Positions 1 to 9,153 of a stretch of DNA of 64,000 nucleotides are shown piece after piece. Source of the DNA: Rhizodiscina lignyota (Eukaryota). How positions within the stretch are numbered: the first letter of the stretch is position 1; each line of letters opens with the position of its first letter. The notes beneath the pieces were generated by a model that did not search any database, had not been told where the DNA came from, and was given only the letters and a program-made list of their open reading frames with translations. A program made the position numbers and the translations under genes. Location of the stretch: contig ML978133.1 of the NCBI GenBank assembly GCA_010015805.1, forward strand, positions 186,001 through 250,000, given 5' to 3'.

Positions 1-358
1 ACATCTCCGATGGGCAACGCAAACACCTCAACAGTCAACTCCCTCGGAAGAGGTTGTGCTGAGCAGATATGCGACAGGCAAGACTCACGTTTTGTAGACT
101 ATAAAGGTAGGTACGGAAGAGAGAGGCACATCAAGGACGAAAAGAGACGGCAACAGCACAGGAGGCTGAACGATAGATGATAATAGCCACCAGTATCGCA
201 CGGTATCACCGTATCAGGCTCTTGCCGAGTCAAAGAAATTGAATAGTTCCCCTTCTTGCTCTATACAGCAATAAGAGTCATAAACACATGGGTAGAAACT
301 AGAAAGCGAATGTGGATTTATCTAAAGAAGGTTATCGTCAACAACAAGTATCCTAGTC

Positions 359-897
359 TCAGTACTTTTTTCCCTTTCTTCTTTTTAATATCATTCTGTT
401 TCGACATCCAGCTTGTGTTGAAGAGTTACTATTCCAAATCATGATCCAAAAATGTATCTCGATTCGCCCGATGAGCGCATGATAGTATGGTAACATAACA
501 TGCTGATTTAGCCAGGCTGTGGTCCGATTAGAGATTGCCTTCTTTGAGCTTAAAGGATGGCATACGCAGCTGGCCCCAGGGCCATTGTTAGAATGACAGC
601 TTTGACCATTGCTGCAAACAGAACCGGACGTGCACTAAATAAGGGAGATGTAAAGTTAGCTTATGGTGTTTAACTGGAGAAAAGATAGTTATAGCATCTT
701 GAAGCTGAATGACGTACGCATTGTCCTAGACCTGGATCGCCATTGACTTGACACAATATTGGGGCGAAACCGCTGCCGCCACACTCCGAGTCGGCCACAC
801 AGCTGCTGGCAAGTTGGCGCTCGAGGACTTGAGCTGAACCAAGGACTTGGGCTGAACCGAGGGCAGCGAGGAGGACTAAATGAAATACAGAACGCAT
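359..897 (-). CDS. Small secreted cysteine-rich protein (effector-like); 3' end uncertain
   Basis: Hydrophobic signal peptide MRSVFHLVLLAALGSAQV. Exon 1 897-718 ends at a GTACGT donor. The intron 717-635 has a GCTAAC branch and TAG acceptor. Exon 2 reads CTSGSVCSNGQSCHSNNGPGASC, giving 8 Cys with a CC across the junction. A possible second donor (GTATGC) at 565 makes the C-terminus ambiguous; unspliced read-through stops at 359. Confidence 0.6.
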
Positions 898-1994
898 TTT
901 TAGCTGCTTTGGTGGGAGTCGTGCGGATGCAATCGCTGTGGTATGGAATGCTTCTGAGAATGTCTCGCCATAGGGAAGTATCCCTTTTTATACCGGGAGA
1001 CCACGGCTGAATGTTTGAACCATCTCTCAACTCAGAGGGATATCTCCCCAGAAACTGGAAGTAACCTTCGAAGTTCCTTTAGCCGCTTTGCGAAAAGTCG
1101 ACTTGCATATGAGTCTAACGTAAGACTTCGCATGCTCTTACTAAGCGTTGACATTGAACTTTGATCTCGTAGATCGATAACTCTTTAAGGAGGAGATAAT
1201 TCTACAATATCCAGGCGTTGTTGTTTCCCTTACAGATTTTTCCTGACCCTGCAGTCATCCCCATATGCGGAGGCGGGGCGGGCCGGACATGATTTTGCCT
1301 AATTGCAGCATTACCTTACAATTGTATCTGGCCCCTATATGTCCTATAAGGCACCTTCATCCCTTTTCTTAAACAGCATTCAGCCGAAGAAACAGGCAGG
1401 CCGCCCTGGAACCCCTAGCATCCAAACCGAGTCAACCGAATCTATAAATGCCATTCAGTCTTTGGCCGGCCAACGTCCTTCCCAAACAAGTACACTCTTC
1501 AGACATAGGACACAAGATGACGCGGGGAAGCTGGATGTAGATCTAAATACACGAGGAAAGCTGCATTTGACGGACGTTAAAAAGATGGAAGAGTATAGGC
1601 TAAGAGACCGTAGACGAATTTGGACTGAGAAGTAACTTGAAGATGCAAACGAGGATTCCAACCGAGCCCAAAAACCGAAAGAAATTCATCACCCCTGTTC
1701 GGCTGCCCGTGGGCCGGGGAATCGAACATAAGCGAATTAACATGTCCGCCGCATCGGAACAGGTCCAATCCTAAGGACAGGAAAACACAGAGCGATACTG
1801 AGCCCCCAAGCAACGTCCAACATTACTCGGCCTCTTCTCAAATTGTTCCAGGTTGAGGGAATCCTTCCATCAGCGTCATGACGACACGGAGTAGGGATCC
1901 TGGCGATCGGGCTCCTGATCCTGTCCACTGGTTAGACCGTTCCAAGGTCAGCTAACATGTCATTCGATTCAATTCGATTTCCCCGGCATGTCGT

Positions 1995-4393
1995 CTATGA
2001 CGATGCGGCGCCGTTCGTCCCTACGTTCTGAGACGCCAATGCTCTTGCAGCCTTCTCCGCAGCTTCTTTAGCCTGGCGAAGTCTCTCGCGCTCAATCGCA
2101 GCAGCCTCTTGCCTCCGTTGGAGCTCGGATTCTTGGGTTTTCTCATCTACGAGGCCACATCTTAGCCCTGAGTACGCGCAGGGGGGAATGATAATTCTGG
2201 AGAACGATTAAGCGTATGGGACTCACCAGAACTCTGGGGCTTGTGACGGAACCAGCCCGCAATCATGTTTCCCGCCTTCTTGATCGTTTTGAAGAGCAAA
2301 GAAAAATTCTGCTTGATAAAGCTGCTGCCGAAGACAAAATCCCAGACGTTGTCGAGTACGTCGGAAACATAGACGTCCCGACGAAAGGCCTTTCCAGAAA
2401 CACGAAACTGCATGTTGCGGATAACGCCCCGGATCGTGATTTCGTGCCCGCTGAGACTGTATGTTGGACATTCTTCGAAATTGGTAGAGACCTCTGACTC
2501 CCTTCCCATCTCACGGATCAATCTTCCGGAGCAGCAAAGAGGTACGTAGGAGCCAGAATCCATATATCCAGAGGCTGACATAGGAGGGAATCCACTCTTA
2601 TCTGGGAATTCCATCTCGCGGCTGAAAAATTGCTAGACAGAACTTCAGTCAGAATCGGAACGGGACCAGTGCATAGCGGACTCACCTCATCCGTCATGTC
2701 ATTCTCAATTCTTTGACGAGCCCCTCGACGGTGACGTGCTCTGGCCGGTGGCTGTAGGAATGGAGCATTGGGATGATACGATGCCTTCTGCTCAATCGGT
2801 TTGTCTGGAAATAAAGGGATCTCTTCGATACAATCAAAATCACATAATCCGAGTTCTTCACATTCGCGAGGAGAAACTGTTTTCCGTGGTATAGTAGATT
2901 CCTCGGGGCCATGAAGAGTTGCACTGCGGAAAACCGATGCACTACGGAAAACCGATGGAGTGTCTCGATTTTGTGTAGGACGAAATTGCTGCTCCGATGG
3001 ATGGGGCTCCAACTGGTAGCTGCACTGAGCCGCGAAATAGGTCCTCCGATAGCTTGTCCACATTTCGTCGGTAGAGGGAATATAGTCTCGCTTGTGGAAG
3101 CAGCGCAGATGCTCTTGGAGATTTTCGTTGCGAGTAAAACCACTGCCGGTGCTGCGTTTGCAGGTCGGTTCAGGACATAACAAATGCTTCCTCGTGCCCC
3201 CATGCAGCCCATGCACTTCACGCTGGTGTCGTAGCAGCCCGCCGCTGTAGGTGAAGCCTAGCAGCTTCGCGCACTCCGCTCGGTCGCAGCGATATGGTCT
3301 GTCGTGCTTATCCATATGCTTTCTACGATCGATTAATATGGCTCCCCGGTGATCGTGGAGTGTCTATGCTTACCCCCACTCGCATTTGCGGTCAAATGTA
3401 AGACCTGCACAGCTTGGATCTGCCTCACATATCATCTTTCCATCAGCGTTGCAGGGTGGATCGCGGCGAATCTTGGACGCATATCTACGAGGGGGAGCGA
3501 TGATGTGTGGGAGATCTGAGTCCGAGTCTGAGAGAGCTGCAGAAGCGTCTGTATCATTCATAGCTGAAGGCGAGGGCGACTGCATCAATTGCTCTTCGGG
3601 CAGAATTCCGTCCGCTAGAAGCAACGTGCTATCAAACTCTTCCTTGAGCATTACCACTAGATCTTCCTCGAGCTTTATCGCTTGCTCTTCCCACGCCTGC
3701 TTCTCCTTCTCGAGCTCTTCAGCACGCGCCTTCTTTCGCTGTCGAGAGTCAAGCCTTGAAGTAGAAGTTAGCGAATTGCTATCACCCAGAGGTTAAACGC
3801 CTAAAACTGGTCTGATATACAGAAAGGGGGACGTACGCAGCTTGCCGATTCCTGAGAAGTCGCTTTTGTTGTTTCAATTCCTTGATCATCTCCTCATCGG
3901 AGATCATCTTCTCAATGTTATCAAGGTTCAGTTCAGGAGGAATCTCGAACCGAGCATTCTTCTGAGGAGTAGTACTAGTAGATAAAGCACCGCCCGAGGG
4001 TAAACCTGCAGGATTCTGTCTATCGTTGCTCGCCCAAACCTTGAGTACATATATTGTATGGCCATCTAGGACCTTCACCTGCTCTAACGTATGATCTTCA
4101 CTGAGGCGGTGGCCAGAGAAGACAAGGCGTTGGCGGTCTACGGGAAGGTCGGTATATTCTGAGGAGATCTTGGATTTGAGGTCACGGATGGTCGTAGAGA
4201 GGGGTAGTGTGAAGACGCGCCTCTCACCCGAGGAGATTACTTTGATGGTGACTTGCGGCTCAAGCGCCTTGTCCGCGGCGGTGGGAAAAAGAGGTGTATG
4301 CTTGACGAAAGGAGCTCGTGTAAGGGGATAGTTGGGGATGGACATGTCGACGGGCCCGTAGTAGGCTTCCCCGGACCAGTAGTCCTTGTCCAT
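1995..4393 (-). CDS. Chimeric 5-exon gene (~710 aa): ubiquitin-like domain + bZIP + 3 C2H2 zinc fingers + retropepsin-like aspartyl protease domain + coiled-coil tail
   Basis: Exons 4393-3837, 3754-3374, 3322-2686, 2632-2227 and 2146-1995 total 2133 nt with all phases compatible. The introns are GT..AG, of 82, 51, 53 and 80 nt. Motifs: UBL (TIRDLKSKI..RQRLVFSGHRLSEDHTL..DGHTI); bZIP KQQKRLLRNRQAA|LDSRQRKK; zinc fingers CEADPSC..CEWG|KHMDKH, CDRAEC..HQREVH and CPEPTC..HLRCFH; protease-like GYMDSGS..WDFVFGSSFI. Confidence 0.75.
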
Positions 4394-4462
4394 TGTAAGA
4401 TGATTATGATGAAAACGTATGTCAGAATCGAGTTGGGCGCCTGATGCCGTTCTTGGAGTAAT

Positions 4463-5746
4463 ATGGCTTGGGCCAGTATGGGGAGCTCAGCGGGCGAAAA
4501 AGGAAGTGATATCTCACTCGCACTCGAGAGACCCCCGAGTGCAGGTAAGGCAGCAGAGGCACGAGTTGAAAATAATTTGGTGCTCTGGCGGGACACGACG
4601 CGTAGAAAAGAGAAGGCGGGCAAGGCAACTGGGTTGGGCACAGCCTCAGATGCGAACCATCGAAAAAGAAAACTCCGCAGGGCTTCCTTTCGCAGAACGT
4701 TTATTCCGTACGACCCTGCACTTTATCACCCTAATGAAATGAAAGGTTATACAAAAATTGCGGCATTGATGTCGCAGTACCCTGAATCAGCCATAGTGAA
4801 GAGGTTCAGTGATTTAAACATTCAAAATATTCTCTACCTTCAGGCTGAGCTGGTTGGGCTGCAACAAGACTTACGAAGGTGTGAGGCTGAAAACGAAACA
4901 TCAAGAGACGTGGAGAAAGAACAATTATTGCTGGATTGGTACACTTTGAGCAGTACAAGAGATGGAGAAGAAGACAACGAGCAATGGCAGTTAGCACTTC
5001 GGATCCGTGAGAAGCTGAAGGAATATGGTGCCGTTCATCACTTGGCCATTTGTGACAGCAGGCGCTGAGGTTCGATGTTGTAGATGAAGCTGTCGTTCGA
5101 TACAGTCAAATGCTCTCCCTGCAAGAGCCCGGAGAGTATGAGCTCAGAAACCTTCAGGAGTGGTTCAGACGACCGACGATGGGAGCCGTGTACCTGACAG
5201 GCAGGGACCGAGATGTGTGGAAAGACGGAGTCGATCTCGTAGCTTTAAAGAGCGCAGAGCGGCATTATCCATTTGTAAGCTGGTTAAACGGACTCACTCC
5301 AACCTTCCATCGGATATTTGGGAAATACTATAAGGTACGTAAGTTGGGTTGAGTGTTGGAGAGGAGAATGTTGATGTAACAAGCACCCTGACCCAACAAC
5401 CGCCGACTTCGCTCCGAATACCGTCTACTACACCGACTCGAAGATATCTAGTTTTGCTGCTTTGATAGGTGCGGTGATTGCTTCACTGCTACCGGTTCTT
5501 GCCATTGTCGTCCTCTACTTTGTGACGGAGATGGGAAAGCGACTTGGTTTGGTGGCGGCGTTTACTGCAGTCTTCTCCATATGCCTTTGGTTTCTTACGG
5601 AGGGGCGGCTGATCGAAGTCTTCTCTGCGACGGCAGCGTAAGTACTTTCGTGAAGGGCGGCTTTAGAAAGACAGACGATGTTAACCAGGCATAGATTCTC
5701 CGCGGTCCAGGTTGTCTTCATAAGTACGAACACTCCAACAGGATGA
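4463..5746 (+). CDS. DUF6594-family membrane protein (about 3 C-terminal TM helices)
   Basis: N-terminal family signature GYTKIAALMSQYPESAIVKRFSDLNIQNILYLQAEL. Introns at 5028-5083, 5335-5383 and ~5638-5695. C-terminal hydrophobic segments IASLLPVLAIVVLYFV, RLGLVAAFTAVFSICLWFL and EVFSATAAFSAVQVVFIS. The start could alternatively be a downstream Met near 4734-4739. Confidence 0.8.
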
Positions 5747-6147
5747 GATCCTTGCCAGGTGCTATATTAAACCCCTCCTACGGAGTAGTCAGACGAAAAC
5801 GTCATTTCTAGCAGCGGCCATGGGCAGGCTTGTATTACATACGATAGCATTAATCAATGTTCTGCATATAGCAAGCATTTGATATCATCGATTCATGTAT
5901 TCCATCTCCAATACCTCGATAACCATTCGAGCAATTCCAAAAAAGTGACGCTGCTTTTGACTAAACAAATCACACATAGCAGTGCAGGTATAATGAATCC
6001 GTAGGACGCCATCTCAAAAGCAAAATCTTTCCAGGCCGCCATAGCACAGTCCCACAATTCCAATCCATGAGGCCTTAACGCCTCTATCCCGCCATGTCTC
6101 CATCACTTCATCATATGTCCATGGGTGTCCCCCAGATTCGACATCAA

Positions 6148-7473
6148 TCATTGCGTGCTCAACAAATCCTTGACGCTCATTCCTCTCCCACTCCATGCCC
6201 TGCGGTCGGTATTCAGCATCAACAGCGCACTCGCTGTGGCCTCATGGTCCTCGGTCGTCAGTTCTCGTGAGTTGCCTCTAGCGCTGATATCAACACTACT
6301 AGCACTTAGTGGGCCTTGACCCCGCTGCGCCTGAATCTCTGGCGAAGCAAGGCTTAGGCTCGGCAGCCGCGGCGGATACTGTTGTTGCTGCGCGAGGAAC
6401 GCAGGGGATGGCAATGTGCTGAGAGATTGATTCGCGCTAGTGCCGGGACGGCTGAATAGAGGAGACTGGGTTGCGGATGGAAGAATGGCGGGAGAAATTG
6501 AAGGACGGGATTGCGTGGCAGTAGAGCTTGTGTAGCGACGATCTTGGAAGGCGACGGGTTGTGCTGGTGGTGCTTCGGACATCTCGTCGTCAGACGCTTC
6601 CGAGTCTTCGTAGTCCCCATCGACGTTTGGGGTCGTACGGGTAGTAGTGGTCACGGAGGGAGGAGGGAGGGTAGTGAGGTTCTCGAGTCGGTCACTGGCG
6701 GAAGAGGGTTTGCAATTCTTGTGAGCGGCTTTCAGCTCGGCGACGCAGATTTCGAGGTAGCGCATATATTCTATGCTGGCCTGAGACACAAGTTAGCATT
6801 ACATTGGCCTACGAGTCTTTATCCAAATTCCTACCTGGAGGATAGCCAGCTTGTGCATGTCTTGGCCGCTACATGCTGGTATCATATCCTTCAAGACTCC
6901 AAACTCCTCATTCATCTTCGAGCGTCGTCGGCGCTCAATGAGACTATGCGCTGTCTTCCGAGCAATCTTCCTTCCAGCCGCCGTTGAAGCGGTAGGTTGC
7001 TTCTTCTTCCCACCAGTCGCACCAGCATTGCCATTCGCTGGTGGAGCAGTTGCGCCCTTGGTGGGCGAGTTCGACATCGGCGTCGACGGTTGCTGCTCTT
7101 GTACCTTCCCCTTCGCCGTCTGGGGCTTCATCTGAATAATCTTCCTAGAGCGCGTCGGCGGCGGAGGAAGCGCATAGTCCTCGCCATTGTTTGCGCCAAT
7201 TTCTGCGGCAGCGCTGGAGCGCTTTCGAGCGGAAGTTGAGGGTTGGCTCTTATCGAGGGCTTTCTGGCTCGACCTTGCTTCCGGCGACGCAGGCGAAAGC
7301 GGGCGGTACGAGGAGTCCGAGTTGGCGGAGGTGGTGCTGCTAGAACTGATGCTCGCGCGAGCGCTGTTTATGGCGGCGGGCGGGAGTTGGATGGTGTCGA
7401 GTTGAGCGGACAGCGCATTTGGCTTACCCGCAATGTCGGTCGAGGGCGCCGGGGTAGGCGGGAGGTTCGCCAT
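6148..7473 (-). CDS. bHLH transcription factor
   Basis: ARKTAHSLIERRRRSKMNEEFGVLKDMIPAC..MHKLAILQ|ASIEYMRYLE, joined by intron 6834-6781. S/P-rich flanks and a C-terminal MSVKDLL motif. Confidence 0.9.
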
Positions 7474-7791
7474 GGTGCGCGCTGCTGGAGAGGAAAATTC
7501 AAAGAAAGAGTGCACTGAGATTTGAAAGAAGGGCTTGGCCTCTTCTTGAGAGGAGCGTGACGATCATTGATACGGCGATGAGGGCGAGGGGAGGACGGCA
7601 ACAAGACCTACATCTGCTCGCGTGCCAGTCTTGCAACCACCAGAGAACATGTGAGGCAAAAACGACCCAAGGCTAGGAGCGTGGCAGCGAGTTCCGCGCT
7701 GATTGGGCGTCGCCCGCCATGCTGCAGAAAGCGGGTAGATATTGATTTCCGCAGCAGCGGAGTAACGAATCGCTATTTCCCCCCAGACGCC

Positions 7792-8339
7792 CACGTGCGC
7801 GCTCAATTTGCGATGATGGCCATGAGGGTCTGCCCCGGCGCTGCCCTAGTCGCGCATTTCTTACGGTTATGTTGCATGTTCCGTACAGCCACTGCTACCA
7901 CCCGCTTTCGCAGTCTCCTTGTCTCATCGCCCGCGTAACCAAATCAGAGAGAGAAGCGAAGCACGAGCGATAACCGTTGAGCGCACTTTGGCCAGTCGCT
8001 GGGCTGCCGAACATATTTCATCGGCCAAAGTAGGAGGATCAGTGCGCCATCCTTCTCCACCCTTATCCGTGCTGCCGCGCAGGACAGGCCTGGAGGAACT
8101 GGAGACGCGATTTCGATAGCACGTGCTCCTGTTCGCACGCTGTTGCGCGGAAGATCGTGAGTCGCTCCTTCAGGCAAAACTTTTCTGGCGCGTAAAGCGG
8201 ACACACGCGACTCGGCGCCGCTCGTGCTTTCTAATGGGCCCTCAGTATGAGGGGATCGGAGGCGTATCTCTCGTCAGAGAGTGGAAATCCACCACTGTCC
8301 CTGCATGGCCGCCTTCATTTCTTTCCTTTGCAGCACGTG
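7792..8339. promoter_or_regulatory. Cluster of three CACGTG E-boxes upstream of the bHLH gene
   Basis: CACGTG at 7792-7797, 8120-8125 and 8334-8339, all within 870 bp of the bHLH start codon. Confidence 0.45.
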
Positions 8340-9153
8340 AAGCAGTTGCCATGAAGTAGGGGGAGCGGAGTGTACCTGCGGCGTTTCAACTCCATGGAAA
8401 GCACATCTATTCATCGCGATTCGTTCGATATCGAGCGGGAACCTGCCTAGAATACGCGGCACGTTGCAACCTCCGACATCTGACAGGGCGTTTGGCTGTG
8501 CGCTATGGACGTGCCAAGGTTCGTGAAGCTGGTGTTGAACATAAAGACACCCATTCTTCGTGATGCTACGCGTGATGGTTGAGCCGTGGTTTGACGCGGA
8601 GTTCGAATTCTCCGGCGATAGCGCGAACACTTCCTGAGCTGTGCTTTAACGTTGTGTTCGTTCTTCGACGATGGAGCTGGAGTTCGACGTAGACGCTAGA
8701 CTGTGCGATCGACGCGCCCCTAAGTGAACAGTTGCAACCCGACGCTAAGACCAGATTCTTTGCTGGGAACGCGAATACTAGGTACGTGAGCTGCAGTTGG
8801 GCCTCAATGACAGCGCGAACGCTTGTCAGATGGCGATTCAACAACAAGACCATCGCTATGCTCATCCACTTCACCTTGTGCATTAGCACCGTGTTCCATC
8901 AATCGTCTGCTTCGAGATCATTCACTGGCTCCGCGAATAGATGTCGAGATGCAAATCAAGCCCTCGTATTCATCAACAGTAAGTCTTGGATTAAACATTT
9001 GCGATTAACATTTGAAGGTATCTGGTTAATATCAATCGAACGAGCGGATCTCATCAAGAGCGTGCTCATGAGCGAGAGTGGATATACCCCAAACGAACCC
9101 AAAACGCCGTGTCGAAGCACTTTCCCGCGCATCTATGCATATCCCATCATCCG

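Follow-up and report, generated by a model that had tools for sequence, protein, structure and literature searches.

The 64,000-nt stretch of Rhizodiscina lignyota DNA considered here, hereafter the window (positions 186,001 to 250,000 of contig ML978133.1, assembly GCA_010015805.1), carries on its minus strand, at 1995..4393, a chimeric gene that we predict from the sequence to comprise five exons, 2133 nt and 710 codons. Splice sites read from the sequence place exons 1-3 at 4393-3837, 3754-3374 and 3322-2686 and exons 4-5 at 2632-2227 and 2146-1995, the last including the stop codon TAG. As checked by script, the four introns (82, 51, 53 and 80 nt) are all GT..AG and the spliced 710-codon frame contains no internal stop. 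The predicted protein begins with a ubiquitin-like (UBL) block, which is followed by a basic leucine zipper (bZIP) block, a block of three C2H2 zinc fingers and a domain of retropepsin fold. The first three blocks were confirmed on the minus strand, at 3965..4282, 3649..3964 and 3088..3579 respectively, and none of them is a chance match.

The UBL block (protein residues 38-143) is devoid of introns and consists of a UBL of the Dsk2/Dph1 type with the first residues of the linker. Pfam detects PF00240 over residues 48-116 (E 2.5e-15, 56.4 bits for a cut-off of 25.4). The block is 68.5% identical over 108 aa to P0001, a UBL-UBA protein of R. lignyota itself, the other Dsk2 proteins compared reaching at most 51%; over exon 1 residues 38-127 the identity to P0001 is 70%, with a pairwise E-value of 7e-37. 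The motif ASNDRQNPA lies within the copied Dsk2 piece, and the copy extends to about TTP. At residue 143 of exon 1 the match to P0001 ends, and from residue 144 onwards the sequence matches the bZIP family. Altogether, residues ~8-115 of the 474 of P0001 are represented. P0001 has a UBA domain that the chimeric gene lacks (up to E 1, Pfam gives no UBA match for any of the five translated exons), and the block is thus a fragment of Dsk2 and not a member of its family.

The bZIP block contains the pre-basic motif, the basic region and the zipper of an Ada-1-like bZIP gene, interrupted by intron 1 (3755..3836, minus strand; 82 nt, GTACGT..CTAAC..AG). This intron falls in phase 2, after the second base of the codon, inside the second Ala codon of RNRQAA, so that the spliced region reads RNRQA-A-LDSRQRKK. 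The spliced protein RNRQAALDSRQRKK, continued by L-x6-W-x6-L-x6-M, carries the bZIP signature N-x2-AA-x2-SR-x-RK, and its zipper heptad is L-W-L-M where P0006, a member of the parental family, has L-F-L-M. Exon 2 taken alone remains below the threshold of the bZIP Pfam profiles (PF00170 / PF07716; 15.0 bits for a cut-off of 27.6) because intron 1 cuts the basic region and splits the domain. Searched among longer proteins, exon 1 gave 618 matches at E <=0.001. Among the best 120, which were listed, 119 belong to a bZIP family of ~600 aa and cover only 23-36% of the query, and none combines UBL and bZIP in one protein. P0006 is identical to the block at 33/45 residues upstream of intron 1 (73%) and at 18/35 downstream of it, in the zipper part encoded by exon 2 (51%). 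We call the source family Ada-1-like: the link to Ada-1 itself comes from the original prediction made on this locus and from a matching length, since the Fusarium culmorum match P0083 is as long as the Ada-1 homologue FpAda1, given as 598 aa in the excerpt of PMC7198649, and not from sequence.

The C2H2 block comprises ~50 residues upstream of the fingers and the three fingers themselves. Intron 2 (3323..3373, minus strand; 51 nt, phase 2, GTAAGC..TAG) lies inside finger 1, between CEW-G(G) and KHMDKH. The exon 3 search gave 261 matches, and the best 120, which were listed, are all members of a single C2H2 family (precomputed PF26176 and/or PF26177). The one with the highest likeness is P0122, again from R. 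lignyota, with 61/78 identical residues (78%), and its match continues into exon 2 upstream of intron 2 (27/50 residues, 54%). P0122 itself has no Pfam match, the Pfam version used appearing to omit PF26176 and PF26177. Once spliced, the finger block of 132 residues shares 69% identity with P0122 and 65.8% with the next best protein. The three fingers carry the motifs KHMDKH..GFTYSGGLLRH.REVH..GFTR.ENL.EH with all 12 zinc ligands, and at each of the 40 invariant columns of the C2H2 alignment A3 the chimeric gene has the shared residue. The block represents residues ~743-887 of the 999 of P0122; the long N-terminal region and the C-terminal coiled coil that complete the architecture of this family are missing from the chimeric gene.

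Both introns sit where the parental families have theirs. Twelve open reading frames (ORFs) were picked from the short or Pfam-less exon 1 matches that resemble unspliced ORF calls. Eleven of them read RNRQAAY and then nonsense, as expected when GC|GTAYGT is read through, and the twelfth stops at RNRQAA; the unspliced frame of the chimeric gene reads through intron 1 in the same manner. As for intron 2, the C2H2-family proteins P0134 and P0210 contain an insert, read through, that separates CEW from KHMDKH; of the further C2H2 proteins compared, three start in or after this insert and four are continuous. At 52 of 80 metagenome C2H2 loci, a phase-2 GT..AG intron of 45-196 nt occupies exactly the intron 2 site. 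The other 28 consist of 12 continuous loci, 2 without CEW within 400 nt, 2 unclear cases and 12 that fell outside the strict pattern and were not assessed for an intron. The continuous CEW-x-KHMDKH loci (L007, L010, L017, L028, L031, L034, L040, L042, L049, L059, L077, L078) may be transcript assemblies or intron-less genes.

The contigs of the genome run that contains the window were aligned to positions 1900-4600 at a likeness of at least 80%. Beyond the window's own contig, two contigs match at 80-89%, one to the C2H2 block and one to the bZIP block, and the same genome thus holds parental paralogues of both. The first contig matches 3212-3321 at 88/110 nt. Its similarity stops exactly at 3321, at the first full codon of exon 3, where its own sequence has ..CAG and one base, an acceptor in the same phase as intron 2. 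When its base differences are placed in the codons of the chimeric gene, they give E13, P15, S18 and Q21, exactly the residues of P0122, so that the genome of the window also encodes an intact C2H2 gene. The second contig matches 3900-3963 (57/64 nt) and 3684-3772 (74/89 nt); it aligns with the last 18 nt of intron 1, and has 143 letters against the window's 127. No other contig of the run matches the UBL block at this threshold.

On either side of the points where the blocks start, the unspliced parental ORFs remain open, which places the breakpoints inside exons. Together with the parental introns kept in the copies, these breakpoints point to copying at the level of DNA and not from mRNA. 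Retroposition was rejected for the bZIP and C2H2 blocks, whose introns are present; the UBL block alone does not discriminate, its parent being intronless in that part (4/4 picked unspliced ORFs are open from upstream of the start to ..FGPDGG). Classical intron-mediated exon shuffling was rejected as well, since the junctions fall within exons 1 and 2 rather than at introns. The original prediction had described three abruptly bounded fragments of housekeeping genes, captured as DNA together with introns that interrupt the bZIP and first-finger motifs. The edges are as sharp as it said and both introns are canonical. The source families it named (a Dsk2/Dph1 UBL, an Ada-1-like bZIP and a conserved Pezizomycotina C2H2 factor) proved right in kind, their intron positions and phases agree with those of the copies, and the paralogues and the DNA-level copying that it expected are borne out. 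The word "housekeeping" is loose, two of the three parents being transcription factors.

Trees place the two tested blocks next to the R. lignyota proteins. The UBL block is sister to P0001 with a Shimodaira-Hasegawa approximate likelihood-ratio (SH-aLRT) support of 97 in a tree of 121 rows, the end branches being 0.71 for the block and 0 for P0001. The finger block is sister to P0122 with supports of 96.6 (115 rows) and 99 (39 rows, after eight long-branch rows had been dropped and 36 rows drawn at random), its end branch being 1.28-1.45 against ~0.02 for P0122. Judged from these trees, the copies were made on the line leading to R. lignyota, after its split from every other sampled fungus, and have since changed fast, their parents remaining almost unchanged.

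The original prediction had dated the capture "relatively recently", which would mean that the fragments were copied shortly ago and that the gene is young. Each tested block is indeed closest to a protein of the same species, the end branches of the parents are ~0 and the parental contig can still be aligned over the last 18 nt of intron 1. We nevertheless give this dating scarcely any probability, and it is the part of the prediction that fails. At the protein level, the UBL and C2H2 copies share only 68.5% and 69% identity with the parents of the same genome. At the nucleotide level, 80-89% is attained only in the best-conserved stretches of 64-110 nt, which belong to two blocks, the UBL block yielding none, and the introns are otherwise unalignable to the parental contigs. 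Among the 14 readable codons at the center of the finger stretch, 6 differ from the parental contig only silently, and of the 12 base changes listed in this stretch, 10 are transversions and 8 fall at third codon positions. Silent sites thus look saturated under protein-level constraint, in what is a small sample of 14 codons. Moreover, the trees contain no close relative of R. lignyota, and "sister to the parent" therein spans a long stem. The sequence comparisons thus favor a capture that is lineage-specific but old. Repeat-induced point mutation was rejected as the cause of the divergence, given the 10 transversions among the 12 changes.

The core of the chimeric gene lies in exon 4 (2227..2632, minus strand), which encodes the retropepsin-fold domain with D-S-G-S at protein residues 550-553. 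An AlphaFold2 model of this domain has a mean predicted local distance difference test (pLDDT) score of 82. Its best matches in the PDB are the RVP domains of Ddi1 from several organisms (Foldseek, E 1.9e-6 to 7e-5, template-modelling score 0.54-0.65), bacterial and viral retropepsins, including the HIV-1 protease, ranking below them. D-S-G-S agrees with the D-[ST]-G-[AS] pattern and comes directly after the model strand 18-24, as in retropepsins. The ESM Atlas clusters nearest to exon 4 carry RVP_2 / gag-asp_proteas with a score of 0.95. In the chimeric gene, Pfam detected neither RVP nor Asp_protease, its only hit of this kind being PF02160 at E 0.17; the family alignment A1, run as a profile against PDB sequences, returned nothing but coiled-coil noise. 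On the basis of the model, we consider that the exon 4 domain has a retropepsin fold and that its proteolytic activity is putative.

An exhaustive search of 1.84 billion representatives retrieved 59 relatives of exon 4, the named ones coming from Lasiodiplodia, Botrytis, Elasticomyces, Pestalotiopsis, Xylaria, Apiospora and a lichen fungus. In alignment A1, the family displays a pre-domain motif RRGRGxRRNxAYW, the domain, in which one Asp is almost invariant, and a charged tail. At least 90% of 32 sequences retain the Asp of the catalytic position; the Gly is not so conserved. The chimeric gene has a weak form of the motif, RHRRGARQR, at the end of exon 3, the exon that also encodes fingers, so that the family core (motif in exon 3, domain in exon 4) spans intron 3. 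Exon 5 (1995..2146, minus strand) encodes the charged, helix-prone tail common to the family (..WF..K.ET.E.K.ERE..), 38% identical to that of P0241 over 39 aa. Between the fingers and the core, the rest of exon 3 (2686..3087, minus strand; 134 residues, ending with RHRRGARQR) has no detected source, exon 3 beyond residue 78 giving no match to P0122 or P0217. It contains an 18-nt tandem duplication (2920..2955, repeat family D1, two copies 94% alike) that repeats six residues of this linker.

Other members of the family also have composite front parts. A Pfam scan of 27 of the 59 members left 25 without any family, the other two being P0251, with an M16 peptidase domain and a truncated second one, and P0297, with a truncated Est1 domain. 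The front of P0297 shares three separate blocks, one with P0269, one with P0252, P0278 and P0282, and one with P0251; these include an Est1-type piece, common to P0252, P0278, P0282 and P0297, and a 59-residue piece of the insulinase-type M16 peptidase, common to P0251 and P0297. The retropepsin-fold family may thus be characterized by mosaic front parts.

P0276 and its cluster members P0300 and P0301, from Logan assemblies, possess a three-finger C2H2 block of the same kind before the retropepsin-fold domain, and no UBL or bZIP. One could then assume that the fusion of C2H2 fingers with the protease-like domain is ancestral in part of the family and that the likeness of the chimeric block to the C2H2 gene of the same genome reflects gene conversion or conservation. 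An approximately unbiased test does not reject a clade of the chimeric and P0276 C2H2 blocks (p 0.41). Such an ancestral fusion seems to us very unlikely, as the chimeric C2H2 block is 69% identical to P0122 against 51% to that of P0276, and groups with P0122 as described above. In addition, the protease-like domains of the chimeric gene and P0276 are only 29% identical, core relatives closer to the chimeric gene have no C2H2 block, and none of the 80 metagenome C2H2 loci, ordinary ones, has a retropepsin-fold domain within the DNA available per locus. The UBL and bZIP blocks would also be left unexplained. The two C2H2 blocks were likely captured independently.

We therefore propose, with a probability of about 75%, that the gene is an old, lineage-specific chimera of three genomic fragments joined before a retropepsin-fold gene. 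Genomic DNA from three unlinked conserved genes would have been copied and joined head to tail, in frame: first the UBL and the first linker residues of a ubiquilin-type Dsk2/Dph1 gene, then the basic-zipper piece of an Ada-1-like bZIP gene, and lastly, from a conserved C2H2 gene, the piece with the three fingers. The receiving gene would have contributed its retropepsin-fold core downstream of the joined pieces. Two parental introns inside these pieces would have been carried along and are predicted to be still in use.

Several points weigh against this proposal. That the five exons form one transcription unit is predicted from genomic sequence alone, and the junctions between exons 3 and 4 and between exons 4 and 5 rely on predicted splice sites only. 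The silent-site estimate comes from just 14 codons, and the long branches of the copies, like the odd letter composition of the UBL block seen in the tree check, could also mean relaxed constraint. The bZIP parent is on no tree, no R. lignyota bZIP being among the proteins compared. P0241 and P0242 (214 and 215 aa), to which the core is most closely related, have no such front part. Finally, no protein identical to exon 1, 3 or 4 was found among the matches listed from two word-indexed searches and an exhaustive one. The chimeric gene thus seems absent from public protein annotation. Nor did any other protein among the matches listed for exons 1, 3 and 4 combine UBL, bZIP, three zinc fingers and a retropepsin-fold domain.

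These observations raise the question of whether the UBL-bZIP-C2H2 frame could be an unexpressed relic, or a separate gene, with the protease-like gene starting alone, for example at a Met seven codons into exon 4. The missing identical protein, the shortness of P0241 and P0242 and the long branches of the copies would all suit such an explanation. We find it unlikely, since the frame of 710 codons has remained open over five exons and four canonical introns despite silent sites that look saturated, and 8 of the 12 differences from the parent fall at third codon positions. The domain-defining residues are also kept: the UBL fold, the N-x2-AA-x2-SR signature with the L-W-L-M heptad, the 12 zinc ligands and D-S-G-S. 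Furthermore, the family core itself spans intron 3, its motif lying in exon 3 and its domain in exon 4.

A gene of the DUF6594 family lies head to head with the chimeric gene, on the plus strand, in three coding pieces at 4739..5641 (PF20237, E 1e-18, 1.2e-6 and 2.1e-19). Their start codons are ~345 nt apart, which suggests that the two genes share a promoter region. The name DUF6594 was not found in the literature searched. Past the DUF6594 gene, the next gene, at 6148-7563 on the minus strand, reads like a basic helix-loop-helix transcription factor (..AHSLIERRRRSKMNEEFGVLKDMIP..). The G+C content is normal at the locus, and no terminal inverted or long direct repeat was found in 1-9000, the longest repeat being 19 nt. 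In the same genome run, the locus is single copy at a likeness of at least 80%.

Fragments of genes can also be gathered by transposons, here Helitrons, Pack-MULEs or a large cargo-carrying element. Serial arrays of short fragments from unlinked genes are described as typical of these elements in plants in the excerpts of PMC3288121 and PMC1947982, and the core domain resembles the proteases of retroelements. The absence of such repeats, the normal G+C and the single copy stand against a transposon, to which we leave a slim chance; this evidence is weak, transposase and reverse transcriptase having been searched for only in the chimeric gene. Under the chimera that we favor, short templated copies could instead have been joined by break repair or template switching, and no transposon would be needed, because the locus shows no repeat over 19 nt in 1-9000, a normal G+C and a single copy.

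One would also wonder what the benefit of such a protein might be. A tentative proposal, possible though not probable, is that of a dimeric nuclear protein that brings a Ddi1-like, protease-type domain to the parental factors and acts as their modulator or antagonist. The predicted protein could dimerize through its zipper and its retropepsin fold, would either bind DNA where its parental factors do or pair with these factors, and would dock through its UBL on receptors of ubiquitin or the proteasome. That the retropepsin-fold family habitually collects fragments of host genes at its 5' end appears quite doubtful to us. If it does, the collected pieces might be baits or decoys tying the protease-type domain, perhaps with the DUF6594 membrane protein, to host regulators or to their attackers, a putative role that takes up the "sensor" idea of the original prediction.

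Most documented cases of new genes assembled from DNA copies of pieces of several genes come from flies and plants, and filamentous ascomycetes are thought to be poor at retaining duplicated DNA. Among the best literature matches, none dealt with the retropepsin-fold family or with fungal multi-fragment chimeras. The gene described here would thus be a fungal and well-resolved example of a known gene-making route, with an architecture not encountered elsewhere in the searches made. All of its parts are traceable: the three parents belong to the same genome, the breakpoints fall within exons, two introns are inherited with site and phase unchanged, and copies and parents have since evolved at very unequal rates. 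It could also provide a direct experimental handle on an unstudied protease-like family.

Parallels can be drawn with several known systems. The bZIP block is to be compared with the Ada-1-type bZIP proteins, such as N. crassa Ada-1 (NCU00499) and FpAda1 (excerpt of PMC7198649). It has in common with the ~600-aa family the motif KNARFEIPPE.NL..I, the basic region, the zipper heptads and the intron site, and differs from it in retaining only ~80 residues. Likewise, the UBL and linker are 68.5% identical to P0001, the R. lignyota protein of the Dsk2/Dph1/ubiquilin type, with only ~108 of its 474 residues present and no UBA. In plants, the integrated decoys of nucleotide-binding leucine-rich-repeat (NLR) proteins are copies of host transcription-factor or ubiquitin-pathway domains fused to a different core; unlike these, the chimeric gene has no NLR core, its partner is a protease-like domain and its neighbor a DUF6594 gene.

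As in the chimeric genes of Drosophila, DNA pieces of unlinked genes are found here in one frame, their parents being intact. Preprints on such genes speak of "exon shuffling hotspots" and "tinkering loci" (10.1101/2025.10.28.685065, 10.64898/2026.08.09.743762). The retropepsin-fold locus type might, although we doubt it, be a fungal counterpart of the latter, which were proposed for Drosophila. The differences are that the host is a filamentous fungus, that the breakpoints are internal to exons and two introns are inherited, that the gene appears old and not young, and that the family of the receiving gene has other members with mosaic front parts.

Finally, Ddi1/DDI2 are shuttle proteases that combine a UBL with a retroviral-protease-like domain. 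Like them, the predicted protein unites a UBL at its N terminus with a retropepsin-fold domain that has D-S-G. The likeness concerns the fold and the domain order only and implies no relation at the sequence level; the combination of RVP sequence homology and helical HDD domain that characterizes Ddi1/DDI2 was not found in the chimeric gene. Its UBL comes from Dsk2, a bZIP and three zinc fingers stand between the two domains, and there is no UBA. In the excerpt of PMC4987142, DDI-1 activates a bZIP-related factor, SKN-1A. In its predicted domain order, the chimeric gene re-creates the layout of Ddi1, a UBL plus a protease, and places two DNA-binding modules between them.

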